In this document: positions 15,368 to 63,980 of the stretch, piece by piece
Layout: each line of letters begins with the position of its first letter
Numbering within the stretch: the stretch's first letter is position 1
DNA from: a virus
UHGV virus genome: UHGV-0140522
Length of the DNA stretch: 64,000 nucleotides
Direction: 5' to 3' (one strand)
Made by a program: the position numbers and the translations under genes
The notes under the pieces: model-generated
The model's input: the letters and a program-made list of their open reading frames with translations, nothing else
What the model was told of the DNA's origin: nothing
Database searches by the model: none

Positions 15368-15392
15368 ACAGTAGATAATTACTTACCTACTA
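15368..15392. promoter_or_regulatory. AT-rich palindrome family member
   Basis: GTAGATAATTACTTACCTAC, 10 nt after the capsid stop. Confidence 0.4.
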
Positions 15393-18810: not shown

Positions 18811-18837
18811 TTTAGGTAAGTACTTACCTATCTAGAT
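18811..18837. promoter_or_regulatory. perfect 18-bp palindrome TAGGTAAGTACTTACCTA between terL stop and portal start
   Basis: Contains the terL stop codon; 25 nt upstream of the portal ATG. Confidence 0.5.
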
Positions 18838-20084
18838 CCGCCAAGAATAACACGATTTTTCACCGGATACCTACGATGAACCGGATAACCCAACGCATCC
18901 GCACTGTGTTCGATGCCGCCAGTCTTATCCATATCGCGTGAGCCTGGCTTGTAGATCACCTTCTCCAGCGAGTCGATGAGGTGTTTGCACTTCGGATCGA
19001 TGTACAACCGGGTTTCGCCCGAGGCACTCATCAACATGCGGTTCACTGCGTTAACACGGTCTGCGATCGGCGGGTGCTTCTTCGGATAATCGACTCGAAG
19101 GAAACCTTTTTCCTTGAAGATATCGACGTCCGATTCACCGCGTGCGTGCTGGCGATACGCACCTGCCGGGTCAGGGAAGATAGTGACCTGAGACTTCCAG
19201 CGCCAGAAACGACGCTCCAGCTCATCACACACTTCAGCCGTGTTGGAAGAGAACAGCACAACCTCGTCCACGGCCCACAGCTCACCATTTGGCTGCGGCT
19301 GCAGGATGACCGATGACATAGGGTCGATGTTGAAGTCCTGACCAACCCAGATCGGCAGTTTCGGATTGAACTGGAGTGGCTTCACATGCACATTGCGGTC
19401 GAACGGGTAGTAAACGCGTCCGGACATGTTTTCGAAGCTGGCCAGGTATTCCTGCGCGAACGATTTAGGGTCCATATCGTTCTTCGCCGCTTCGATTTCC
19501 GCGCTCGGTACGAACGGAGAATCGGCCGTAACGAACTGCCAGCTCTTCCACTGCCCTTTGCGTTGCAAATCTATGTTCTGACCGATAGTCCACAGCTTGT
19601 GGAACTCGGAGAAGCCTTTTGGCGTACCGATGATCAGCGCACCGCCACGGGTAGAGGACAGTGTCGGACGCAGTACCTTGTACCAGGTGTCAGGCTTCAT
19701 ATCCTGAAATTCATCGAGCACCACGAAGTGCAGTGCCACACCACGAAGCGTATCGGGCTTATCCGCACCTTTCAGCGCGATTTCAGAGCCGTTCTTCAGC
19801 ACAATGGTCATCGTGGTGTCGTTTTTCTTACGAACCCATTTACGAGGCAGAACTTCCTGCAGGTCATCCCACAAGATCTGGCGAGCCATCTGGTAAGTCG
19901 GTGCGACGTACCAGACACGTTGCTTTTTCTCTTTGGCTGCCGCGCGGATGATGGTGGAGATCGACAACCGGGATTTACCCCAGCGTCGACCCGCACACAC
20001 CACTTTGAAACGATGTGGTGACTGGAAGACTTGCATCTGCCCAGAATGCAGCTGTACGAGACTCAGAGACGACGGGATGGCCAT
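18828..20084 (-). CDS. terL: terminase large subunit
   Basis: Walker A VVCAGRRWGKSRLS, Walker B VVLDEFQD, C-terminal acidic nuclease-like motifs; 418 aa. Confidence 0.8.
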   Translation of the reverse strand: MAIPSSLSLVQLHSGQMQVFQSPHRFKVVCAGRRWGKSRLSISTIIRAAAKEKKQRVWYVAPTYQMARQILWDDLQEVLPRKWVRKKNDTTMTIVLKNGSEIALKGADKPDTLRGVALHFVVLDEFQDMKPDTWYKVLRPTLSSTRGGALIIGTPKGFSEFHKLWTIGQNIDLQRKGQWKSWQFVTADSPFVPSAEIEAAKNDMDPKSFAQEYLASFENMSGRVYYPFDRNVHVKPLQFNPKLPIWVGQDFNIDPMSSVILQPQPNGELWAVDEVVLFSSNTAEVCDELERRFWRWKSQVTIFPDPAGAYRQHARGESDVDIFKEKGFLRVDYPKKHPPIADRVNAVNRMLMSASGETRLYIDPKCKHLIDSLEKVIYKPGSRDMDKTGGIEHSADALGYPVHRRYPVKNRVILGGSR

Positions 20085-20086
20085 AG

Positions 20087-20728
20087 TTAGACGCTCCCAT
20101 CACTTTCATCACCAGACGCGTCAGAATCGCCCTCTGCTTCGCTCAGTGCTTCCTCTTCGAGCGACTCAAGCAGATCGTCATCAATCAGATCCGGCTCATC
20201 ATCTTCCTTACGCAGCTGCGCCACCTGGGAAGGCGTAAGTTCGCCAAATACCAGGTTCGGGATTTCGTCGTCTTCGTTCTCTGCGCGATCCATACCGAGC
20301 GCTTTCGAGGATATTTCGAAGCACTTAGCGAGTGTGCCGCTGGCACGCTGGAGACTCTTCAGGTCATCTTCGATGGTTGCCAGTGGCTTGCCGTCCTTCT
20401 TGGCTGTGGCCACCTCATGCATCACCATTCGACCGAGTGCGAACGCCCAATCGTCGTAACGAGTCCGGCGCTCTTCGATTTTCTCTGCACGCGCCTTTGC
20501 ACGCAGCTCTGCGTCGGATTTGAGCGACTCGCGCACCATCTTCCCAACGGAGTCCGCGCCTTTCTCTAATCCACGCTTTTTGAAATGTCTGGAGAGCGTT
20601 TCACGACGAATGCCGTACTCTTCCTCCAGCTTGGAGAGTGTGTATTCACCGGAAGTCCACTTTGCTTCGGCTTCTGCCCACTCAGCTGGCGTCAGGCGAG
20701 TTTTGCTCTCGTCTTTTTCTACAGTCAT
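20087..20728 (-). CDS. terS: terminase small subunit (putative)
   Basis: 213-aa protein with an N-terminal HTH-like segment and acidic C-terminal tail, translationally coupled to terL. Confidence 0.5.
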   Translation of the reverse strand: MTVEKDESKTRLTPAEWAEAEAKWTSGEYTLSKLEEEYGIRRETLSRHFKKRGLEKGADSVGKMVRESLKSDAELRAKARAEKIEERRTRYDDWAFALGRMVMHEVATAKKDGKPLATIEDDLKSLQRASGTLAKCFEISSKALGMDRAENEDDEIPNLVFGELTPSQVAQLRKEDDEPDLIDDDLLESLEEEALSEAEGDSDASGDESDGSV

Positions 20729-20767
20729 AGATCCCTCTAAAACACTCAGAGCGCATCCTTGCGCTCC

Positions 20768-20820
20768 TAAACAACTTGTTTAATTCTGTGCCTAACCAAT
20801 TTGTTTTCTGGGTGTTTAAA
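20768..20820 (-). promoter_or_regulatory. split early-motif-like element upstream of terS
   Basis: TAAACAACTTGTTTA...CCAATTTGTTTTCTGGGTGTTTA. Confidence 0.4.
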
Positions 20821-20921
20821 ACCGGGCTGGGGAGTATTCAGAGCCTGCTTCCGTATATATTTAATAAGTCACTTAGTATTTATATATACGGAAGCAGGCT
20901 CTCAAACTGGCTCCCAGACCG
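20805..20921. repeat. large palindrome block, copy 1
   Basis: Perfect 20-bp arms GAGCCTGCTTCCGTATATAT / ATATATACGGAAGCAGGCTC (20841-20860 / 20882-20901) around a 21-nt spacer TTAATAAGTCACTTAGTATTT, then TCAAACTGGCTCCCAGACCG; 113 nt upstream of the terS start. Confidence 0.65.
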
Positions 20922-20923
20922 AC

Positions 20924-21190
20924 TTACATCACCAGTAATTTGGCTCTGGCACGACCTAACGTGGTCAGTCCCAGCGTGCGACGGTGGTAGCCGGAATCAC
21001 CGCGCTGGCGGCACATTCCTTTCTCCACCAGCCCCTTTTTCACCAGTGCGCGGATAGAGAACTGCATACTCTGTTTGGTCGTTTTGTACGGCAGCACTTC
21101 AAGCAGCTCGTCCAGATCGAGCAGATGCCCACGCTCATGGCCTAAATTGATGGTTTTGATGATGTCTTTTTGTTTGTCGGTCAACGTCAT
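20924..21190 (-). CDS. winged-helix transcriptional regulator (MarR/PadR-like)
   Basis: 88-aa protein with a predicted HTH (LEVLPYKTTKQSMQFSIRALVKKGLV). It lies directly upstream of the large palindrome block and terS, so it may act as a late regulator. Confidence 0.4.
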   Translation of the reverse strand: MTLTDKQKDIIKTINLGHERGHLLDLDELLEVLPYKTTKQSMQFSIRALVKKGLVEKGMCRQRGDSGYHRRTLGLTTLGRARAKLLVM

Positions 21191-27305: not shown

Positions 27306-27585
27306 GTGTCACTTCCCGTTATATTTATTTCCCCTAATCCCTATTCCACTTTAAATATATAAGGGTGAATGACCGAATAGGGAATTTATTTAGGCAACAC
27401 CTTCGAGAAAACGCGATTTATTTCTAAGACTTTGATTTTTGTTGAAGAAAATTTTTTTTCGTTCCCGTGTAAAAAACTCTTGATTTTAATTTCTGTATAT
27501 CGATAATTAGTCACATCGAAAGCGAACACGCTAACGATAAACAAATAACAAATTAAGTTATCAATATTACATAAGGATTAATATC

Positions 27586-29631: not shown

Positions 29632-29666
29632 TAAACAACTTGTTTTCTTGTTGGTTTAATTATCGC
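29632..29666 (-). promoter_or_regulatory. early promoter/operator motif copy
   Basis: TAAACAACTTGTTTTCTTGTTGGTTTAATTATCGC; 14 nt upstream of the start codon on the gene strand. Confidence 0.6.
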
Positions 29667-29734
29667 TACGCGCATAAGGTGTCCAAGCGTTCTGTTCCGG
29701 CAGCTGGTGGCCGGCAGGGAGTCGGAGAGTTGTT

Positions 29735-29770
29735 CGGTAGCCTGGCGGCAAGAGGTGGGTGTTTTTAGCC
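29735..29770. repeat. TAGCCTG-N-AAGAGGTGGGTGTTT element, also present 3 times at 32905-32995
   Basis: cggTAGCCTGgcggcAAGAGGTGGGTGTTTTtagcctg. Confidence 0.45.
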
Positions 29771-30665: not shown

Positions 30666-30695
30666 CGTAGGTAAGCACTTACAATACAGGTAAGC
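30666..30695. promoter_or_regulatory. AT-rich palindrome family member (GGTAAGCACTTAC)
   Basis: cgTAGGTAAGCACTTACaatacaGGTAAGC, about 40 nt upstream of the 30627 start. Confidence 0.4.
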
Positions 30696-31078: not shown

Positions 31079-31114
31079 TAAACAACTTGTTTTCTTATTG
31101 GTGTAAATAATACC
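31079..31114 (-). promoter_or_regulatory. early promoter/operator motif copy
   Basis: TAAACAACTTGTTTTCTTATTGGTGTAAATAATACC. Confidence 0.6.
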
Positions 31115-32049: not shown

Positions 32050-33030
32050 GCGATTTCACCACCAAAACCCGTAACCCTTTACACTAGATCTGGCTTCCCG
32101 ATATGAGCGTGCGAAGCTGATCTGGTCTCAATGCTCAACTGCGGGATTCACCAATTCCCGCACTATTCAGGTGAATGAGGAAAAGGCATACTCCCGCAGC
32201 CGTCCCTCGCTCTGAACTGGGATGTACCCGTTTCCCGACCGGCAGCCAGCCTTTTCCCTGCGGCGATGCCCCCGTTCCTGAAAAGGAACATGGCCTTTTC
32301 CCTAGATGGCCCGAAGGCTGACCGAAGGGGTGGATAGGGACGTTACGGGGGATGAAAACTATGGCTTGAATTTCTACGGAGAAAGTAGCGATACCCCTCT
32401 TCCCCTTCCCACTTATACCTCCAGTTAAATCTCTACGGATTTTCTCTCCTGTGGACGTGTAAACCTTCCCCCTGATAACGCTCTATACGGCGAGTATTCC
32501 TTTGGGTGAAATGGGTGGTTTGTTCTCTCTACCGGCGTATGTGGTTTCGTTGTTCTTGAGGTGGTTCTTCTCTGTGTTTTCGTCTGGGTTGTTCTCGTCG
32601 TTTTGGTGAGTGTTCTTCTCCGTGTATAGAGTAATGGCATGTGCGCTTCTCTCTTCGTTTACGTGAAGAGATGGAAGTGTGGGTAATGGCAGTAGGGCGC
32701 TTTTGTTGTTCTCCGCATATGAAGTAATGGCGTTCCCTGCTATTCAGGAATTTGCGCTCCCTTTCGGGGTAATGGTGGGTAAACGAGATTGCGACGGTTC
32801 CTGTTCTGGTCTGGGTTTGTCCGGGGTTTCGTTCTGGCTGTTCTTCTCCGTGTATTGGGTAATGGCGTGTAGGGGTTTGCGTGCGCGAGCTGCGTTCTCG
32901 GTTGCCTGGGGAGATTAGGTGGGTGGTCTGTAGCCTGGGGCAAAGAGGTGGGTCTTTTCGGTAGCCTGACAGGAAGAGGTGGGTGTTTCCGGGATTGTGG
33001 GTAATGGCGTCTCTGGTTTTCCTGTGGGTG
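32050..33030 (-). ncRNA. candidate ~1 kb non-coding RNA / repeat-rich regulatory region
   Basis: No credible ORF; strong strand skew; six or more GTAATGGC repeats, a 226-bp internal duplication, three CCCACCTCTT...CAGGCTA repeats; an early motif copy at 33033-33070 is positioned to drive minus-strand transcription with no start codon or RBS after it. Confidence 0.4.
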
Positions 33031-33032
33031 TG

Positions 33033-33070
33033 GTTAACTTGTTTTCTTGTGCCTGAAAACAACTTGTTTA
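33033..33070 (-). promoter_or_regulatory. early promoter/operator motif (double partial copy) at upstream end of the non-coding region
   Basis: GTTAACTTGTTTTCTTGTGCCTGAAAACAACTTGTTTA. Confidence 0.5.
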
Positions 33071-33412: not shown

Positions 33413-33982
33413 CTAGTTGTTCAGATAGGCATCAGGAACGCGGACATAAAAGTTTCTGTCGCCGGTCAGTTCCAGAGTAACGTTAATGTCATTGCCGTTA
33501 TCCAGCGTAGCCGTCGCTTTATAGAACTTGTCCGTCACCTTGTCCTGAATTGTCACCTTCATACATTTCGGCGCTGTGGTTCCGTTATTCTCTTTCAGAA
33601 TGGTCGTTACGAGAGGACAAGCCGCTTCTTCAAGAGCAACCTCTTCCTGGTGCGGGATGCCGATAAAGATGATGCAAGCCAGCGAAGCGACAATGACGAT
33701 AAACGGAATCCGACTCCCTTTTGTGATGGTCGCACGCTTCCAGAGATAGACCGGCAGGAAGAGTACGCCCCACAAAATGGCCGGTGGTTCATAGCCTGCT
33801 TCTGAGAGTGCCATTCTGTCGGCCACCAGCAAACCGATGACGGCAACACCGCCAATGACCATTGCGTAATTGAAGTACTCGTCTGGCGGTACGCCAAAGA
33901 AGAGAGGCAGGAACGCTAATATCCACGCATAAATATTTTTCAGAGGTTTTGTTTGTTGGTTCTGGGTTTCCATCACATCCAT
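33413..33982 (-). CDS. integral membrane protein (4 predicted transmembrane helices)
   Basis: Hydrophobic segments IYAWILAFLPLFF, VIGGVAVIGLLV, ILWGVLFLPVYLW, IVIVASLACIIFIGI. Confidence 0.55.
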   Translation of the reverse strand: MDVMETQNQQTKPLKNIYAWILAFLPLFFGVPPDEYFNYAMVIGGVAVIGLLVADRMALSEAGYEPPAILWGVLFLPVYLWKRATITKGSRIPFIVIVASLACIIFIGIPHQEEVALEEAACPLVTTILKENNGTTAPKCMKVTIQDKVTDKFYKATATLDNGNDINVTLELTGDRNFYVRVPDAYLNN

Positions 33983-34380: not shown

Positions 34381-34631
34381 GCCTTCTCCTTTGGAAACAG
34401 AATGTCGGCCGTGTCAGAAATGACATCCCAATTCACACCGACGCTGGCGTCATGGCACTCTTTGATTTTTCGCAAAACCTGAACGCACTGTTTGTCAGTC
34501 AGATCTGGTCGCACTTCACCTACATCTTCCTTGTGCCACATTACCATCAGCAGCGGCTCGTCTTCTGGGTAGTTCTCCAGCTTTTCGATGATGTCTTTTG
34601 CGGTTCCGAACATGATTAACTCCTTAAACAA
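34377..34631 (-). CDS. hypothetical early protein (84 aa)
   Basis: AAGGAG RBS; motif copy upstream. Confidence 0.5.
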   Translation of the reverse strand: MFKELIMFGTAKDIIEKLENYPEDEPLLMVMWHKEDVGEVRPDLTDKQCVQVLRKIKECHDASVGVNWDVISDTADILFPKEKA

Positions 34632-34657
34632 CTTGTTTTCTTGTTGGCGTTATTATC
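34624..34657 (-). promoter_or_regulatory. early promoter/operator motif copy
   Basis: TTAAACAACTTGTTTTCTTGTTGGCGTTATTATC. Confidence 0.6.
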
Positions 34658-34965: not shown

Positions 34966-35152
34966 TTTTTCGCCCTCAATACTGTATATACAAACAGTAG
35001 TATTTATTACTATACCGGTCAACTTTGCGGGTTAAGGGAATAACAAGGTGGTGAAAACAATTTGTTTCGGCACTTGAGATTTTGCAAACCGCACATACAT
35101 GAAAAGCGGCAATTTTTGAAACCTGATTTGACCCAAGTGAAAGGAGGAAACG

Positions 35153-35356: not shown

Positions 35357-35384
35357 TTTAATAATCTAGAAAACAAATTGTTTA

Positions 35385-36784: not shown

Positions 36785-36814
36785 AAATTAGGTAAGTATT
36801 TACCTATCATTTTA
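36785..36814. promoter_or_regulatory. AT-rich palindrome family member
   Basis: aaatTAGGTAAGTATTTACCTAtcatttta overlapping the methyltransferase stop. Confidence 0.45.
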
Positions 36815-38510
36815 CGCGTTTGAAAACGTATACGCTTACAGTGATTCCGGTGTCTTCAAACTCGTCAGTAAACGACTTCCCTTTGGCATAAACGTAATTA
36901 TCCAGCGTCATCCAGTTCAGAGCTGGCGCATCACCCGGCAGTACTGCCACCAGTCGCCCGCCGACTTTAAGATGCTCCAGCGCGGTCAGCGTATGCTCTC
37001 TGTGACGGCCAAGAGAGTAGGGCGGGTTCATGACGATTTTGTCGAACTGATAGCCTGCGTTGTCCTCAGACCACTTCATGAAGTCGCAGCAGACCGTATT
37101 TGTGTACCCCTTGCCAATCAGGATATCAGCGAAGAGAGGTGCGACTTCTATGCAGGTAACGTCTTCCGGATTGGCGTCGATGCAGGCCAACAGATCTCCG
37201 CGCCCGGCTTCAGGCTCCAGCAGCTTCTCACCTGACTTCAGCTCGATGGCTCTGGCAACGTACTCCGCTATCAAACGCGGGGTAGGGTAGAACTGGTGTG
37301 ATTTTGTATCCGGTATTAAGCCAGTGGCCACAATCGTATTTAGCGTATGACCGATCTCATACGGGAACTGCCAGTGCTTTTTCTCCTGCACACCGCCAAT
37401 GAAGTTCAGTGTGCGCTCAAGCTCTTCCACCTGTGACTTCTGTAGGTTGGAATCAGAGAAGTACCAGACGCCTTTGTCTTTGCTGAATCGCCCGTCGCGC
37501 AGCGCGGTACGAACCGGCTCGGAGATCGTCTTCTGGATTAACCCGAACTCTTTTGGTGCCGGTGTTTTGGGTGCAGTACGGCATGGCGCCGGGATTGCTG
37601 CAGGCATACTGTAAGCCAGCACCTCATTCAGCTTCCAGGCCACGTCAGGATGTATTTCAAAGTGAACGTTGCCGTTCTTGAACATCTTCACGCGCATCAG
37701 GTTTCCGTCGACATTCATCCAGTCACCGGTCTGGCAGTCGTTTGCCCGGTACGCAGCTGATAGCATCTCAGTTGTGCGGTTGATGGTGATGAACTCTTTG
37801 TGCGCGAAGAAATGAAGCATGACGCGCAGATCGTCGATGTAGTCCTCTTTCCGGTAGTTCACGCTCACGCTGTCCCGCCAGAACTCGGAAATGAAGTTGG
37901 CGATGATCAGACGCTCGCTAAAGCCGTTCGTCTTATTGGTCTTGTGGGCAGGACTCAGCGCCTTAAACAAGCCATACACGCGCTCAGAGAGATATTTGTG
38001 CCTGTCATTCAGCAGATTGAGCATCGTGGGGATGACCGTTTCTGCTTTGAACTCCGGCACGCCAACGAACTCCTTAACCTTCATCTGGTAGCCGGTTCTG
38101 TCAGTCCTGATGGTTTCCTGTTTGCCTTCGATGAACTGCTCACGCCACTCGTCGCGGCGGGAAGCTGGCATGATCAGCAGAACGTTTGTCATATCCGTGA
38201 CCTTCTTCCAGTACTCGGCCCAGATATTCTGTTTCACCCATTCAAGGTCGACCTTGTCCAGCCAGGCTCTGTTAAAGCGTGTGCGCTCGTCATCCGGCCG
38301 GTGGTTGAGTCGCAGTAGGCGGTTAATCATGTTGTGGCGTTCGTCGCCATAAATGAAGTCGTGAACCTGATGCATGAATGCGATCTCTTTCTCGCACTCG
38401 GCCACAATTTCGTGGATGACGTTCATTTCCTGCCGGTAGTCGATATCAGTGTTTGGGGTGATAGCGTCAATGATAGAAAGAGCTGTATTCATGATTGCAC
38501 CATTAAACAA
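36807..38510 (-). CDS. orphan N6-adenine DNA methyltransferase fused to a ~400-aa N-terminal domain of unknown function
   Basis: C-terminal motifs QFYPTP, EPEAGRGDLL, NPPYS (NPPY catalytic motif IV); N-terminal 400 aa without recognisable motif; no adjacent restriction endonuclease. Confidence 0.6.
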   Translation of the reverse strand: MFNGAIMNTALSIIDAITPNTDIDYRQEMNVIHEIVAECEKEIAFMHQVHDFIYGDERHNMINRLLRLNHRPDDERTRFNRAWLDKVDLEWVKQNIWAEYWKKVTDMTNVLLIMPASRRDEWREQFIEGKQETIRTDRTGYQMKVKEFVGVPEFKAETVIPTMLNLLNDRHKYLSERVYGLFKALSPAHKTNKTNGFSERLIIANFISEFWRDSVSVNYRKEDYIDDLRVMLHFFAHKEFITINRTTEMLSAAYRANDCQTGDWMNVDGNLMRVKMFKNGNVHFEIHPDVAWKLNEVLAYSMPAAIPAPCRTAPKTPAPKEFGLIQKTISEPVRTALRDGRFSKDKGVWYFSDSNLQKSQVEELERTLNFIGGVQEKKHWQFPYEIGHTLNTIVATGLIPDTKSHQFYPTPRLIAEYVARAIELKSGEKLLEPEAGRGDLLACIDANPEDVTCIEVAPLFADILIGKGYTNTVCCDFMKWSEDNAGYQFDKIVMNPPYSLGRHREHTLTALEHLKVGGRLVAVLPGDAPALNWMTLDNYVYAKGKSFTDEFEDTGITVSVYVFKRVK

Positions 38511-38538
38511 ATTGTTTTCTTGTTGGTGTTATTTTCCC
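38503..38538 (-). promoter_or_regulatory. early promoter/operator motif copy upstream of methyltransferase
   Basis: TTAAACAAATTGTTTTCTTGTTGGTGTTATTTTCCC. Confidence 0.6.
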
Positions 38539-38633: not shown

Positions 38634-39233
38634 TTAGTGGTGTACGTGCTGCGTTTTGTGCGGCTGTTTGTTCAGGTCGTGGCGATGCGTAAGCTCGCGC
38701 ATCATGTCTTCAAGACGACTCTTGGTGTCGTCAAGCTGGTCGGCCATTGCCCCCAGCAGCTGGCGAACGGCCATCGGATCGTCGCTGTTCAGCTCAGGCA
38801 TTTTGAACCCAGACTGTGAAGACATCAGTTTGAAAGCGGCCAGCAACATCGCCAGAGAAGACTTCAACCCGGCGATTTCACGATCTTTGCTGGCGTTGGT
38901 TTCATCTGCCTTGACTGAATCCGGTGAGCACTTCGGCTTGCTTACCATTTCCAGAGTTGCCTGAAGTTTGTCGGCGCGTTCTTTCTCTTCCAGATACGCT
39001 TCGCCGAAATGACGCGCCAGCATCACAATTTCAATAGGATCATCAATCATGCTAGAGAACTTGAGAGCGCTGAAAAGGCGGTCGATAGGGGAGGCGTAGT
39101 CTTCGTGACCAACCACAAGACCCATGATCTCAACCAGTTCGGCCGCACCAACTTTTTTAATCACGCTTTCAACTTTGGCATTAGTTTTTTTGCATTTTTC
39201 GCACATGTGTTTTTTCCTTATGTTTTTAAACAA
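38634..39233 (-). CDS. hypothetical protein (199 aa) with N-terminal CxxC
   Basis: MCEKCKK near the N-terminus; His-rich C-terminus. Confidence 0.45.
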   Translation of the reverse strand: MFKNIRKKHMCEKCKKTNAKVESVIKKVGAAELVEIMGLVVGHEDYASPIDRLFSALKFSSMIDDPIEIVMLARHFGEAYLEEKERADKLQATLEMVSKPKCSPDSVKADETNASKDREIAGLKSSLAMLLAAFKLMSSQSGFKMPELNSDDPMAVRQLLGAMADQLDDTKSRLEDMMRELTHRHDLNKQPHKTQHVHH

Positions 39234-39262
39234 GTTGTTTTCTAGATGGCGTTATTATGGCG
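39226..39262 (-). promoter_or_regulatory. early promoter/operator motif copy
   Basis: TTAAACAAGTTGTTTTCTAGATGGCGTTATTATGGCG. Confidence 0.55.
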
Positions 39263-40140: not shown

Positions 40141-40172
40141 AAAATGATAGGTAAATACTTACCTATCATTTT
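40141..40172. promoter_or_regulatory. 32-bp near-perfect palindrome of the GGTAAGTACTTACC family at the left edge of the cargo island
   Basis: AAAATGATAGGTAAATACTTACCTATCATTTT. Confidence 0.5.
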
Positions 40173-43825: not shown

Positions 43826-44713
43826 ATGATGGCGAAACGGGAAAACTATAACGATCTCTATCTGTTTATGCAGGTCGTGCGAGAAGGGAGTTTTACTGCC
43901 GCCGCGCAGAGGCTTGGCCTGGCGCAGTCAGGAATTAGTCGTGCAGTGCGCGAGCTGGAAGAACGACTGGGCGTGCAGCTTCTGGTGCGTACCACGCGCA
44001 AGTTATCGCTCACCCATGCCGGCGAGTTGCTCTATCGAACCGTCGAATCTGGATTTGACGCTTTAGATATGGGGCTTGCCACGCTGGCCCATTATCGCCA
44101 TACCCCATCGGGTACGGTCCGTATTAATGCCAGTCAGCACGCCATTGATAAAGTGCTGCTGCCGAAGCTGGCGGTGTTTAAACAACGCTACCCAGATATT
44201 CGGCTGGAGCTCATCAGCGAAAGCCGGTTTGTCGATATTATTGCTGAGCGCTTCGATGCCGGTATACGTCTGGGCTCGGAAGTAGGTAGCGGTATGGTCG
44301 CTGTGCGCATTTCGCCCGATATGGAGATGGCCATTGTCGGCACGCCCGAGCACTTTCGTCGCTACGGATTTCCGCAAACTCCCTCCGATTTAGTTATTCA
44401 TCCCTGCATCGCTTACCAGTTTGGAGACGGCAGCCTGTATGCATGGGAACTCAATCAAGACGGTAAAAAGATAACCCATCAACCTCAGGGACAATGGGCC
44501 TTTGCTGACAGCTATATGGAAGCCAAAGCCGCCCGGCTAGGCCTGGGACTGGCTTATGTTCCGGAGGAATTAGTTTCTGATGATATAGAACAGGGGGCGC
44601 TGATCAGAGTTTTGCAATGCTACAGTCAGCGCCTGGAAGGTTCATATCTCTATTATCCGCACCGCAATGTGTCACCCGCTCTAAGAGCGGTTATCGATAC
44701 ATTGAGAATTTAA
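43826..44713 (+). CDS. LysR-family transcriptional regulator
   Basis: N-terminal HTH LYLFMQVVREGSFTAAAQRLGLAQSGISRAVRELEERLG, LysR substrate-binding fold length; divergent from the hydrolase. Confidence 0.85.
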   Translation: MMAKRENYNDLYLFMQVVREGSFTAAAQRLGLAQSGISRAVRELEERLGVQLLVRTTRKLSLTHAGELLYRTVESGFDALDMGLATLAHYRHTPSGTVRINASQHAIDKVLLPKLAVFKQRYPDIRLELISESRFVDIIAERFDAGIRLGSEVGSGMVAVRISPDMEMAIVGTPEHFRRYGFPQTPSDLVIHPCIAYQFGDGSLYAWELNQDGKKITHQPQGQWAFADSYMEAKAARLGLGLAYVPEELVSDDIEQGALIRVLQCYSQRLEGSYLYYPHRNVSPALRAVIDTLRI

Positions 44714-45335: not shown

Positions 45336-45360
45336 AAATGGTAAGTACTTACCGATTATT
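45336..45360. promoter_or_regulatory. AT-rich palindrome family member at right edge of cargo island
   Basis: aaatGGTAAGTACTTACCgattatt. Confidence 0.45.
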
Positions 45361-45586
45361 TCGATTGATTATTTTCTCGACCATGAAGCTGGACGTTCAG
45401 GGCAAACACCTCATTGATGAGTTCCCCTAACAGCTGCTCGACCAGCTCTTTGTGCTCACCTGAGTGAAGGCACTTGAGCGACCATTCGTAGAGACTGAAA
45501 GCCTTATCGCGATCTTTCATCATGTCGCGTACTTTGGTCAGAAAATCGCTCTCAACGAGCGCTACGACGTTCGTCGGGTATACCAT
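45356..45586 (-). CDS. hypothetical small protein (76 aa)
   Basis: Lies about 116 nt downstream of the second copy of the large palindrome block, the same spacing as terS from the first copy. Confidence 0.4.
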   Translation of the reverse strand: MVYPTNVVALVESDFLTKVRDMMKDRDKAFSLYEWSLKCLHSGEHKELVEQLLGELINEVFALNVQLHGRENNQSK

Positions 45587-45654
45587 GATAGTTTTCCTTA
45601 CTGTGGTTCATAAAATCGATTCTAGAGCGTCTGGAGAGGGGTTCCAGTGGGTTC

Positions 45655-45785
45655 TGGAGGTGTAAAACGGTCTGGGAGTTGTTTGGAAATCACGTCTTAA
45701 AAAGCCTGCGTCTGTATATATTAATAATTAGTACTTAGTTATTTATATATACGGAAGCAGGTTCTCAAACTAACTCCCAGACTGG
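45655..45785. repeat. large palindrome block, copy 2 (degenerate)
   Basis: Arms AAGCCTGCGTCTGTATATAT and ATATATACGGAAGCAGGTTC around a 23-nt spacer containing AGTACTTAG, then TCAAACTAACTCCCAGAC; flanks also similar to copy 1. Confidence 0.6.
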
Positions 45786-45788
45786 TGT

Positions 45789-46406
45789 TTACGCTGCCTT
45801 TTTACGTGGTCTCTTCTTCCTGACAACATTGGCAGGATCATAACCACCCAGCTTTTTCATCACCGCCAGCGGTATCTTGCTGATGGTGTGCCCAGCTTCC
45901 TGACAGTAGCCACGGAAGATAAGCAACATGCTACCACCAGGGTTGATGTTCACCTCCACCAGCCCAAGTTCAACATCCGGCTCAACGAACGCCACGCGGC
46001 CGCCAGACAAGATGACGGTTTCGTTGGCGCATTCAGCCGCACGCTCGTACCACTGCGTATCGAGGGATTGTGGTATCAACATGACTGTCGTCACTCCACG
46101 CGCCTGCTCGCGAATGGCTGCGTCTATCCAGGGGGTGATTTTGGAGTAGGGCGGGTTAAGGAACGCCACAGTGCCAGGTTCTCCCCAGCTGCACTTGAGC
46201 GCATCACGCTCAACACCGATAAAGTTCGGCAGGAGGGCATTATCTTTGTTGCAGGCGACGTCCACATCGAACTTTACGCCTATGTAACGTTGGATGGCGA
46301 CAAACAACCACTGCGGTGTGCGCCAAAGGTCGCGAAGAGAGGCATCACGCTCTCGCTTTTTGATTTTTTCGGCTGCGATCATTACTTTGTTCTGATAGGT
46401 AAACAC
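45789..46406 (-). CDS. dam: DNA N6-adenine methyltransferase (phage Dam family)
   Basis: LWRTPQWLF and FLNPPYS motifs; alternative ATG at 46382 because the listed start is a GTG inside a palindrome. Confidence 0.6.
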   Translation of the reverse strand: MFTYQNKVMIAAEKIKKRERDASLRDLWRTPQWLFVAIQRYIGVKFDVDVACNKDNALLPNFIGVERDALKCSWGEPGTVAFLNPPYSKITPWIDAAIREQARGVTTVMLIPQSLDTQWYERAAECANETVILSGGRVAFVEPDVELGLVEVNINPGGSMLLIFRGYCQEAGHTISKIPLAVMKKLGGYDPANVVRKKRPRKKAA

Positions 46407-46419
46407 TTACCTATTTTTT
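46393..46419. promoter_or_regulatory. AT-rich palindrome family member
   Basis: TGATAGGTAAACACTTACCTATTTTTT. Confidence 0.45.
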
Positions 46420-53508: not shown

Positions 53509-53537
53509 GTGTTTCCCTCTGAATGTTATCGAGTGGC

Positions 53538-53573
53538 TTTAAACAAATTGTTATCTTATTGGTTTAAATAAGG
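53538..53573 (-). promoter_or_regulatory. early promoter/operator motif copy upstream of nrdB
   Basis: TTTAAACAAATTGTTATCTTATTGGTTTAAATAAGG. Confidence 0.55.
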
Positions 53574-55976: not shown

Positions 55977-56006
55977 AATAGATAAGCACTTACCTATCAA
56001 TTACCG
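55977..56006. promoter_or_regulatory. AT-rich palindrome family member; possible TTGATA-N17-TAACAT promoter on the minus strand
   Basis: taatAGATAAGCACTTACCTATCaattacc. Confidence 0.4.
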
Positions 56007-56614: not shown

Positions 56615-57336
56615 TCCATTAGTTTCTGTTCAAGTGTCTTCTCCGGCTCGCGAGTTGGCGGCTTCGGAATGTCGCTAACAACATGAATGCTATCGTTGGT
56701 TAGAACGCCTGCCGCAATATCTGCATCAATCATGCTCTGGCCGATGAAATGTCGCATGATGTCGATCAGATGGCGTGCAGCCGTTTCATTCGCGCTGAAT
56801 ACATGGGGGAGAAGAACTTCAATAACCGCTACTTCACATCCCTCCTCGTAAAAGCAAAGTTTCGCCCGCTTTGAGATTGGCGCGTGCCGATCATAGTCAA
56901 CAGAGAAGCTGGCGAAGGCAGCACCCGGCATTGCAACGTGATCTGCGCGTGCGTTAGCGTGTCGAATCAGATTAGTGAATGCGGTGCTGATGTGCGTCTC
57001 CATCGCATTGAAGAGCGCATTTTCTTGGATGTTCAGCGTTCCGGTTTCAGGAATCACAACGAACCCCGGCCCAGAATGTGGGAGATATCCACCTTCCGTA
57101 AATGGATTAATAAGGATCGGCGCAGTGCTTCCTGACGGCAGCATAGACAAACTCGGCATCAACGGAGTCGATGACAACAGACTGGTTAATACCGAGAACT
57201 GGTCGTCATTGATGTTTTCGTTTTTCCACAAAAGTGCAGGCGCAGCTGCTTTTGCCGTATGGTGGTTTATCAGCTTTATAGACTGCATCACGGCAAACAT
57301 CTGCAAAAACTGCGTTCGGCTCAAGTTAAACGACAT
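56590..57336 (-). CDS. hypothetical protein (248 aa)
   Basis: Between the SbcC-like and RuvC-like genes. Confidence 0.4.
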   Translation of the reverse strand: MSFNLSRTQFLQMFAVMQSIKLINHHTAKAAAPALLWKNENINDDQFSVLTSLLSSTPLMPSLSMLPSGSTAPILINPFTEGGYLPHSGPGFVVIPETGTLNIQENALFNAMETHISTAFTNLIRHANARADHVAMPGAAFASFSVDYDRHAPISKRAKLCFYEEGCEVAVIEVLLPHVFSANETAARHLIDIMRHFIGQSMIDADIAAGVLTNDSIHVVSDIPKPPTREPEKTLEQKLMECPTWATW

Positions 57337-62142: not shown

Positions 62143-62252
62143 TACTATCCACTATGGGGAGGAAAGTAACCTCTGTAGAGAGCATATTAACCGCTATGAA
62201 GAGCAAAACAACCTCTCTGGAGAGTGGTCGGCATCCACTGTAGTGAGTAGGA
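62143..62252 (+). repeat. iteron array 1 (5 x ~21 bp)
   Basis: ATCCACTATGGGGAGG / ACCTCTGTAGAGAGCA / ACCGCTATGAAGAGCA / ACCTCTCTGGAGAGTG / ATCCACTGTAGTGAGTAGG. Confidence 0.6.
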
Positions 62253-62412
62253 GACATTGTCTTAACTGGATAACTCAGTGCCTGTGTTTCTACGTCAGGT
62301 AGCTGATATTCATAGAGATGTTGGAAGTTTTGCGTTCAGGCGTGTTTGTTTCGACCACACATTATCCCCAGAAGGGGAGTGATGGCTGGTTATGCAATTA
62401 CCTGATTTTTAT

Positions 62413-62490
62413 ACACAGGCCCGATCCAGTAATTCAGATCCCAAAGAGAACCCAAGAGACCCACAAAGACCCAAAAAGATCCCCGCACCC
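62413..62490. promoter_or_regulatory. GATC-containing origin block B (paralogue of block A)
   Basis: ACACAGGCCCGATCCAGTAATTCAGATCCCAAAGAGA...AAAGATCCCC. Confidence 0.5.
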
Positions 62491-62528
62491 CGCAAACCGT
62501 TGTGCCGCATGGTCTTAGAGGTGATCGA

Positions 62529-62655
62529 TATCCACTATAGAGAGAAGATCAGCCACTATGAAGAGCAAACCAACCACTGTAGAGAGTAGAAAAACCACTA
62601 TAGGCGGTAGGATAACCGCTGTGATGAGTGCTACTATCCACTGTAATCAGCAAAG
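62529..62655 (+). repeat. iteron array 2 (6 x 21 bp) immediately upstream of repA
   Basis: Consensus AACCACTGTAGAGAGTAG; e.g. CCAACCACTGTAGAGAGTAGA, AAAACCACTATAGGCGGTAGG. Confidence 0.7.
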
Positions 62656-63747: not shown

Positions 63748-63980
63748 CCCAACCACTGTAGAGAGTAGAAAGGCTCACTATCCGCTGTAGTGAGCCTTTT
63801 GTTTATCTGAAATCCGCTAACCACTGTAGTGAGTAACAACTACCGAATAGTAACCACTGTAGGCAGTAGCGCTCAAATAACGAAATAAATGTTAGTGGTT
63901 ACAAACCTAGATGAAACAAGGGCTGCGAGGTTAGTGGTCACTGGGTGACTTGTTAAATCCACTCTCTATAGTGGTTATCG
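63748..63980. repeat. iteron array 3 downstream of repA (copies in both orientations) including the repA terminator hairpin
   Basis: CCAACCACTGTAGAGAGTAG, TAACCACTGTAGTGAGTAAC, TAACCACTGTAGGCAGTAGC; inverted copies GTTAGTGGTTAC, GGTTAGTGGTCAC, CTATAGTGGTTATCG; hairpin AGGCTCACTATCCGCTGTAGTGAGCCTTTT at 63770-63801. Confidence 0.65.

Follow-up and report, generated by a model that had tools for sequence, protein, structure and literature searches.

A palindromic element at three gene-block borders of SSU5-type phage-plasmids, a candidate transcription control module

The subject of this analysis is an intergenic palindromic element that occurs twice in a 64,000-nt stretch of the virus genome UHGV-0140522 (hereafter the window): copy 1 lies upstream of the small terminase gene terS, and copy 2 between dam and an open reading frame (ORF) for a protein of 76 amino acids (aa). 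The genes flanking both copies are all on the minus strand, and the SSU5-type genome is almost entirely co-directional. An earlier note on this DNA had described a duplicated block with a palindrome of 20-bp arms, which can be read directly from the sequence. In copy 1, two perfect 20-bp arms, GAGCCTGCTTCCGTATATAT (20841–20860) and ATATATACGGAAGCAGGCTC (20882–20901), enclose a 21-nt AT-rich spacer (TTAATAAGTCACTTAGTATTT, 20861–20881) containing the sub-palindrome TAAGTCACTTA, and a repeat scan lengthens the arms to 24 nt at 96%. The distances to the start codons also agree with those claimed, i.e. 113 nt to terS (20728) and ∼116 nt to the 76-aa ORF (45586). The arms of copy 2, CCTGCGTCTGTATATAT (45705–45721) and ATATATACGGAAGCAGG (45745–45761), contain two to three mismatches (C·A and U·C on the gene strand) and flank a 23-nt AT-rich spacer that includes AGTACTTAG; the T-tract of this copy sits within a 16-nt insertion not present in copy 1. 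Each palindrome is enclosed by a second, larger inverted repeat that was absent from the earlier note (GTCTGGGAG...CTCCCAGAC on the gene strand). In copy 2, the CTCCCAGACC repeat and positions 45774–45790 pair at 16 of 17 positions as a lower stem or outer inverted repeat. Coordinates are collected in Table 1.

Table 1. Features around the two copies in the window, and positions of the three elements in the SSU5 genome
Feature	Position	Strand	Remark
terL	18828–20084	−	
terS (213 aa)	20087–20728	−	first gene of packaging/structural block
Small GC-rich hairpin and U-run (GGAGCGCAAGGATGCGCTCT GAGTGTTTTA)	20738–20767	−	directly ahead of terS ribosome-binding site
terS-leader motifs, AAACAAGTTGTTT-type, two copies	20765–20823	−	
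Copy 1 downstream outer repeat CTCCCCAGCCC	20824–20834	− (gene strand)	inverted partner of GTCTGGGAG
Copy 1 core palindrome	20837–20905	no strand	arms and AT-rich spacer
Copy 1 tail TCAAACTGGCTCCCAGAC	20902–20919		
Copy 1 upstream outer repeat GTCTGGGAG	20911–20919	− (gene strand)	
88-aa small-protein gene	20924–21190	−	stop codon 4 nt ahead of copy 1 element
76-aa ORF (PHROG 5343, unknown function)	45356–45586	−	first gene of third block
Promoter-like element CTCCAGACGCTC-TAGAAT	45619–45636	−	−10-like hexamer at 45624–45619
Copy 2 downstream outer repeat CTCCCAGACC	45669–45678	− (gene strand)	
Copy 2 T-tract (GCAGG CTTTTTAA)	45697–45704	−	immediately 3′ of hairpin, gene strand
Copy 2 core palindrome	45705–45761	no strand	imperfect arms, AT-rich spacer
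Copy 2 upstream outer repeat GTCTGGGAG	45774–45782	− (gene strand)	
dam (PF05869)	45789–46406	−	last gene of replication/nucleotide-metabolism block; stop a few nt ahead of copy 2
Element A (copy 1 equivalent)	SSU5 103263/5		across linear-record junction; upstream of terS
Element C (third copy)	SSU5 33458–33513		outside the window; between SSU5_037 and SSU5_038, upstream of DnaB-like helicase and primase
Element B (copy 2 equivalent)	SSU5 78304–78360		after dam

Copies 1 and 2 agree at 80% of 66 ungapped nt (the earlier note gave about 80 percent including the flanks), and the mean column identity is 75% when the whole intergenic regions are aligned over more than 130 nt, with the 16-nt insertion in copy 2; the upstream flank is nearly exact between them. 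The 15-mer of the arm is found five times with up to three mismatches against 0.93 expected (none of 100 shuffles reaches five), and the tail motif twice against 0.13 expected. These counts are so far above the shuffled or expected values that chance is excluded for the duplication. The outer motif was rejected as a genome-wide array because CTCCCAGAC with at most one mismatch is not enriched (30 occurrences against 23 expected); exact copies of CTCCCAGAC alone cluster at the elements.

The region around the element is 98.6% identical to Salmonella phage SSU5, and it is 81–85% identical to SSU5-like phage-plasmids of Klebsiella and E. coli; the window is thus an SSU5/pHCM2/pMT1-type phage-plasmid. 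A 161-bp block of the element matches 798 PLSDB plasmids (e.g. from Klebsiella, Escherichia, Enterobacter, Yersinia pestis, Salmonella and other genera), and the family also occurs in 12 phage records. The complete SSU5 genome contains exactly three full elements, spaced at 0, 33.46 and 78.30 kb and all of the same polarity relative to the genes, so that the search for further copies that the earlier note had proposed yields a third one, found in complete relatives outside the window. The three copies divide the genome into blocks for packaging, structure and lysis (33.5 kb), for replication and nucleotide metabolism (44.8 kb) and for small early or regulatory genes (25 kb). The copy next to dam, which the note had left unexplained, is therefore explained in part, as a member of a three-copy family marking the borders of three co-directional blocks.

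Every copy begins a few bases past a stop codon and ends ∼95–118 nt ahead of the first gene of the next block. In the window, both copies lie within ∼10 nt of a minus-strand stop (of the 88-aa gene and of dam), i.e. downstream of the last gene of a unit, where a terminator is expected. Among relatives, variable cargo reaches the upstream edge of the third-copy palindrome, whereas its downstream side does not vary, and the element is thereby linked to the operon after it. A literature search found no description of the element. The family of cis-elements is real and strongly conserved, and it seems not to have been described before.

We then examined how the element varies, using 62 distinct oriented elements of the three types that were obtained from viral-contig scans and terS-anchored loci. 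The core consists of CCTGCnTCYGTATATAT, an AT-rich centre and the inverted half-site, within the outer brackets GTCTGGGAG/CTCCCAGAC. The half-site is the best-conserved part and is kept even in a clade in which Dam is 76% and the 76-aa protein 56–63% identical; the centre sequence is conserved within the terS copies and within the third copies. Arm changes cluster at positions 5, 6, 8 and 9 and are frequently uncompensated, with such mismatches in the terS copies of the Klebsiella clade and in the dam copies. Arm cells divide into Watson–Crick, gene-strand G·U, A·C and other pairs as 448, 17, 3 and 8 in the terS copies, 134, 4, 10 and 6 in the dam copies, and 216, 20, 0 and 2 in the third copies, where all deviations at the outer 12 arm positions are gene-strand G·U (20 of 20 cells). 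RNA covariation was accordingly rejected for this set, because the strand signal is inconsistent (only G·U in the third copies, mostly A·C in the dam copies).

The predicted hairpins are very stable (−43 to −56 kcal/mol, z-scores −7 to −9). The gene-strand fold of copy 1, with its perfect 20-bp stem plus extensions, reaches −53.1 kcal/mol and both strands fold equally, while the third copy folds better in sense. Rfam 15 gives no match in the window at the gathering threshold, only sub-threshold generic hairpin matches to microRNA precursor models. Since the fold preference varies by copy, there is no uniform RNA-strand signature, and accounting for the conservation requires that the DNA sequence itself be recognized.

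Relatives beyond the enterobacterial group show how old the arrangement may be. The large terminase subunit TerL is 54–58% identical to that of 106–122-kb siphophages of Pseudomonas (Nickievirus), Rhizobium, Stenotrophomonas and Xanthomonas, and Pseudomonas phage nickie and Rhizobium phage B1VFA are syntenic with SSU5 across the whole genome. At the positions syntenic with element A (upstream of terS) and element C (upstream of the SSU5_038 homologue), nickie has imperfect long palindromes that resemble each other in sequence and are unrelated to those of SSU5. In Rhizobium phage RHEph10, terS is preceded by a GC-clamped, AT-centred hairpin of 86 nt, and the Rhizobium phages X66 and B1VFA share a different one there, with arms ATTCCCGTCCATTCACTGTC. 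The elements of B1VFA lie at 40.07, 54.26 and 84.18 kb; those at 40.07 and 84.18 kb, away from terS, are half copies that consist of an AT-rich segment with TATAAT and the right arm only, and thus keep sequence, not symmetry. An initial inference from a gap-free palindrome scan, that the element is absent from virulent relatives and so plasmid-specific, was dropped in view of the imperfect palindromes in the syntenic intergenic regions of nickie.

Palindromes at the same syntenic positions indicate that the element is ancient and tied to operon starts. Their sequence turns over between lineages yet is shared within a genome, as one would expect if each lineage had its own factor for the site. 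The retention of the half-site in the diverged clade, the uncompensated arm changes and the B1VFA half elements together indicate that the sequence itself is recognized. The whole-genome synteny extends to enterobacterial SSU5-type phage-plasmids, virulent Pseudomonas Nickievirus and the Rhizobium B1VFA/RHEph10 phages, all with a conserved cluster ahead of terS (i.e. a helicase, ParB-like proteins, two ABC-type ATPases and a small protein). In B1VFA, a gene for a sigma-70-family factor also lies between the cobaltochelatase-like genes and that of the DNA polymerase.

Features of transcription control are distributed unequally among the copies. The number of T residues in the 9 nt past the palindrome is 5–7 in most third copies, 4–6 in the dam copies of the SSU5 and E. 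coli clades, 2–3 in those of the distant clade and 2–4 in all 34 distinct terS copies (copy 1 reads GCAGG CTCTGAATA). The copy 2 hairpin with its T-tract has the shape of an intrinsic terminator; a consensus terminator scan calls neither block, since it admits no loop longer than 8 nt. A consensus promoter scan found no sigma-70 promoter (−35 and −10 boxes 16–18 bp apart) within either block, and a sigma-54 promoter downstream was rejected on inspection, there being no GG-N10-GC pattern. Most variants of the dam-type and third copies carry CCAG(A/T)CG(C/T)T followed by TAGAAT, TAAAAT, TATGAT or TATCAT (the CCAGACGCT-TAGAAT element), at a distance of 56–72 nt past the palindrome and with ∼40 nt left to the start codon. 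The instance below copy 2, CTCCAGACGCTCTAGAAT (45636–45619, minus strand), is the only occurrence in the window and lies ∼40 nt ahead of the ATG; copy 1 lacks this element. The late promoter with activator site suggested in the earlier note can be retained for copy 2 in modified form: the blocks themselves hold no sigma-70 promoter, the −10-like element lies past copy 2, outside the block as then delimited, and its conservation makes an upstream site plus promoter plausible there, with no counterpart at copy 1.

The terS leader contains one degenerate motif (ACACCCAGAAAACAAATTGGTTA) and one exact motif (AAACAAGTTGTTT, 20769–20781), and elsewhere in the window this type of motif lies downstream of ∼10 extended −10 promoters. 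The leader hairpin is kept across clades with compensatory and G·U changes (GAGCGCA/TGCGCTC vs GAGCATA/TGTGCTC). It looks like an attenuator or terminator, and its conservation suggests, from sequence comparison, that the packaging genes may be under attenuation or antitermination control. The 88-aa protein encoded just upstream of copy 1 has a weak winged-helix/LexA-type DNA-binding similarity, and a small gene occupies the same syntenic position in every relative examined; Pfam and PHROG searches of the neighbouring small proteins gave no function beyond this winged-helix hint. ParB-like genes adjoin copy 1.

Our best explanation, which we hold tentatively and with somewhat less than even confidence, is that the element is a three-copy, cis-acting module controlling transcription at the borders of the three gene blocks. 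The GC-rich half-sites (CCTGCnTCYGTATATAT) would be read as sequence by a phage-encoded dimeric DNA-binding factor, and the palindrome would form a hairpin of very high stability in read-through transcripts. The T-tract that follows this hairpin at copy 2 and the third copy would make it a factor-independent terminator, and a weak promoter (CCAGACGCT-TAGAAT), probably dependent on a factor, would restart transcription ∼60–70 nt beyond it. At copy 1, transcription from the conserved upstream genes would run through, as the lack of a T-tract permits, and entry into terS would be governed by the operator-like AAACAAGTTGTTT motifs and the small terminator-like hairpin. Stopping or insulating and then restarting under regulation describes a block-boundary control region, not a simple promoter or a simple cos site.

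Several observations weigh against this explanation. The T-tract is missing at copy 1, at the dam copy of the distant clade and at every palindrome of nickie and the Rhizobium phages; the core function that has been conserved can therefore not be termination. The consensus scan does not see the putative promoters, whose −35 regions are poor. Copy 2 carries its C·A and U·C mismatches on the gene strand in the window's own clade, and its antisense RNA folds better than the gene strand (−56.1 vs −42.8 kcal/mol). An AT-rich centre clamped by GC-rich inverted boxes is a classical design of replication origins too. Finally, the boundary of the SSU5 record inside copy 1, described below, is unexplained by block-boundary control except as an accident of assembly or curation.

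That boundary is the starting point for a possible but doubtful alternative in which copy 1 is a terminase recognition or cut site, with cos-type nicks at the arm/spacer junctions or with one boundary of a T5-like long direct terminal repeat. The other copies would be paralogous terminase-binding sites or pseudo-sites (inactive through the 16–17-nt insertion and the different downstream flank), or the other repeat boundary. The position directly upstream of terS is the canonical place of a cos or pac site, palindrome architecture is conserved there in four lineages, and in the window's clade neither of the other two copies has as perfect a palindrome as copy 1. The earlier note had suggested such a pac- or cos-proximal element. 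Its sole direct support comes from the linear SSU5 record, both ends of which fall at window position 20861|20862, exactly at the copy 1 arm/spacer junction and 133 nt upstream of terS. The junction is seamless compared with circular relatives, with bases neither duplicated nor missing; such bases would be the usual trace of a long cohesive end unless the record was curated. In public assemblies with identical TerS, short-read whole-plasmid contigs cross copy 1 and none ends inside the element; assemblies would therefore not be expected to break there in general, and an accident of assembly or curation is less likely for SSU5. Against this, one draft contig begins inside a third-copy palindrome, so breaks at these repeats do occur. 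A literature search for end mapping of SSU5 found none, only a phage-plasmid induction paper without end data. Cyrano, whose record boundary is 1 nt from that of SSU5, was rejected as independent evidence: its paper aligns the genome with SSU5 and reports no end mapping, so its boundary probably derives from the SSU5 orientation. The record start of B1VFA was likewise dropped as a physical end because the B1VFA and V1VFA-S records begin at different places; the Nican01 record is re-oriented to terL, and the nickie record has no repeated ends. A cos site is expected once per unit genome and in company with a terminase whose relatives use cos. SSU5 has three full, near-identical copies, hard to square with unit-length cutting (copies 1 and 2 even share their upstream flank), and the nearest TerL relatives with determined ends, Nican01 (56% identical) and B1VFA and V1VFA-S (54%), have long direct terminal repeats. 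The ends of Nican01 are given as 'DTR (long)' (PMC11256456), and the repeats measure 3,605 bp in B1VFA and 3,939 bp in V1VFA-S (PMC12509600); the ends of these related phages are at least fixed, as packaging at a defined site would have it. The place of the third copy beside replication genes, in nickie as well, is not accounted for. In a further variant, which we rate as quite improbable, the palindromes are cruciform-prone sites for genome maturation in T5-related long-terminal-repeat packaging, copy 1 being one virion end, while another copy (e.g. copy 2) would bound a multi-kb terminal repeat at its opposite end or provide a hairpin-priming site by which it is duplicated; if true, this plasmid-prophage would package fixed-end, terminally repeated DNA by means of repeated palindromic signals.

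Two other alternatives draw on the internal design of the element. That each palindrome is a lytic replication origin, with two inverted initiator boxes around an easily melted AT-rich centre and three copies serving rapid replication of the ∼105-kb genome after induction, as in herpesvirus oriS/oriL, seems unlikely to us. It is consistent with the GC-rich inverted boxes around a 21–45-bp AT-rich centre, which are retained in relatives of 57–59% G+C, with a box sequence that is common to the paralogues and co-varies between lineages as expected of an origin and its initiator, with the third copy directly upstream of SSU5_038, the DnaB-like helicase and the primase in both SSU5 and nickie, and with the distribution of the copies round the genome at 0, 33.5 and 78.3 kb. 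However, no initiator was identified (SSU5_038 and its homologues have no recognizable domain), the plasmid replicon with its iterons is located elsewhere, and the constant polarity, the T-tracts and the downstream −10-like element are unaccounted for. The cumulative GC skew is uniformly positive without an inflection at the three sites, a weak test since all genes are co-directional. Improbable, too, in our judgement are purely RNA-level hairpins acting as intrinsic terminators (copy 2 and the third copy) or as RNase III processing or mRNA-stabilizing structures (copy 1), with no sequence-specific protein and with the similarity among copies due to common descent and selection for pairing. 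The excess of G·U over A·C gene-strand cells (41 vs 13 over all distinct variants), an architecture that persists while the sequence turns over fully between lineages, and the location directly past stop codons agree with this. There is a resemblance to the RNase III sites of phage T7, in that the stems reach at least 20 bp and include a lower stem and an internal loop, and the predicted gene-strand fold of copy 1 does supply the ∼20 bp or more of double-stranded RNA that RNase III needs. Yet the uncompensated mismatches of the Klebsiella-clade terS copies and the dam copies, the better antisense pairing of copy 2, the B1VFA half copies that keep their sequence without a partner arm and the centre sequence conserved within the terS and third copies all speak against this reading. 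Nor is there an RNA-level reason for the strongly AT-biased interior, and the element has no Rfam match. These readings could in part coexist with control of transcription at the block borders.

Several other sequence families in the window or in SSU5 touch on the half-site or on the promoters. A LexA box was rejected on inspection: although the T-variant half-site (CTGTATAT) is like half of a LexA site, its spacing does not fit and CCGT stands in the canonical arm. On the plus strand at 27462–27510, in the counterpart of the SSU5 repressor-gene region, a promoter-like TTGATT-16-GATAAT has the half-site TTCTGTATA in its spacer, and in SSU5 the 9-mer TTC(C/T)GTAT(A/T) occurs 12 times against ∼3 expected. 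The two motif families are linked at SSU5 56823–56875, outside the window, where a single AAACAAATTGG-type promoter/leader motif lies between 13-bp inverted arms (TATTTCCGTATTA/TAATACGGAATTA) that are akin to the inner portion of the palindrome arms.

At least nine exact AAACAA(N)TTGTTT cores lie in the window (20769–20781, 29633–29645, 31080–31092, 33057–33069, 34626–34638, 35055–35067, 35371–35383, 38505–38517 and 39228–39240; also 53537–53570). Most are on the gene strand inside a conserved unit, TGCGATAAT(−10)-AACACCAACAAGAAAACAAGTTGTTTA-ribosome-binding site-ATG. There are ∼20 such units in SSU5, and a related motif is present inside the palindrome centres of nickie. From their layout, the units look like an extended −10 promoter family with a common operator or leader.

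The palindrome GGTAAGTACTTACC has 13 sites with at most three mismatches against one expected (including 18815–18828, 45340–45353, 36791–36804, 40150–40163, 46398–46411, 55981–55994, 15374–15387 and 30670–30683). It usually follows a TAAAAT/TATAGT-like hexamer and precedes TATCAT, and the same motif (GTAAGTAAGTCCTTACTTAT) is syntenic in B1VFA. This family may be a promoter/operator class of a conserved phage factor; the palindrome also resembles the SlmA-binding consensus. In Lpa-dependent late promoters of the P1 type, the −10 hexamer lies directly downstream of a short inverted repeat ∼22 bp upstream of the start, an arrangement that we take to be fitted better by the 13 GGTAAGTACTTACC sites than by the blocks around copies 1 and 2.

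Some observations concern the wider window. A LysR-type regulator ORF at 43826–44713, on the plus strand and thus opposite to its neighbours, is ∼1 kb from copy 2 and is probably inserted accessory cargo. Arrays of direct repeats spaced by 21 nt (62146–62629 and 63749–63839, consensus about AACCACTGTAGAGAG) look like the iterons of a plasmid replication origin. Three 32-nt repeats (TGTTCTTCTCCGTGTAT...) lie at 32611–32870, and three tandem repeats of ∼30 nt (TTCGGTAGCCTGG...GAGGTGGGTGTTT) at 32895–32989, with the latter repeat also at 29731–29765.

Phage-plasmids of the SSU5/pHCM2/pMT1 type are widespread among Salmonella, E. coli, Klebsiella, Enterobacter and Yersinia pestis, and some carry resistance genes. 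A three-copy element that is better conserved than its neighbouring genes offers a handle on their regulation, lytic replication and packaging, and gives defined sites at which to look for lytic origins, for packaged DNA ends and for the switch by which induction opens the late and replication operons. Since a large group of ∼100–120-kb siphophages has this layout as an ancestral trait, an answer obtained in one system would carry over to the others.

Comparison with known systems brings out what is shared and what is distinctive. Like a lambda-type cos (cosQ-cosN-cosB), the element lies directly upstream of the small terminase gene, has two-fold symmetry about a central segment and coincides at its arm/spacer junction with the ends of the SSU5 record; unlike it, the element has three copies, its 21-nt spacer would make an unusually long cohesive end, and the relatives with mapped ends carry multi-kb direct terminal repeats instead of cohesive ends (PMC11256456, PMC12509600). 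With herpesvirus oriS/oriL it shares a palindrome of GC-rich boxes around an AT-rich spacer, present in a few identical intergenic copies next to promoters, but here there is no identified initiator, no skew signal and a constant polarity relative to transcription. The likeness to T7 RNase III sites lies in the occurrence, at gene borders of co-directional operons, of several long hairpins that resemble one another and have an upper and a lower stem, whereas gene-strand arm mismatches are not consistently tolerated here, and the AT-rich centre, the outer repeat and the B1VFA half copies exceed what an RNase III site needs. Intrinsic terminators, including the bidirectional ones of phages, similarly have a GC-clamped stable hairpin past a stop codon, followed by a T-tract as in copy 2 and the third copy. 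In contrast, their stems are of 5–14 bp with a small loop, against 20–28 bp with a long AT-rich interior in the element, which also reuses the same sequence at three loci, is conserved across clades and has no T-tract at copy 1 or in distant relatives. The OB sites of KorB in RK2 and the dispersed SopB sites of N15 are 13–16-bp palindromes, compared with ∼60 bp here, and analogous elements are found in the virulent nickie, which needs no partition; the likeness is that a few identical palindromes are dispersed on a plasmid-prophage, some of them 60–120 bp upstream of promoters, and that ParB-like genes are neighbours of copy 1.

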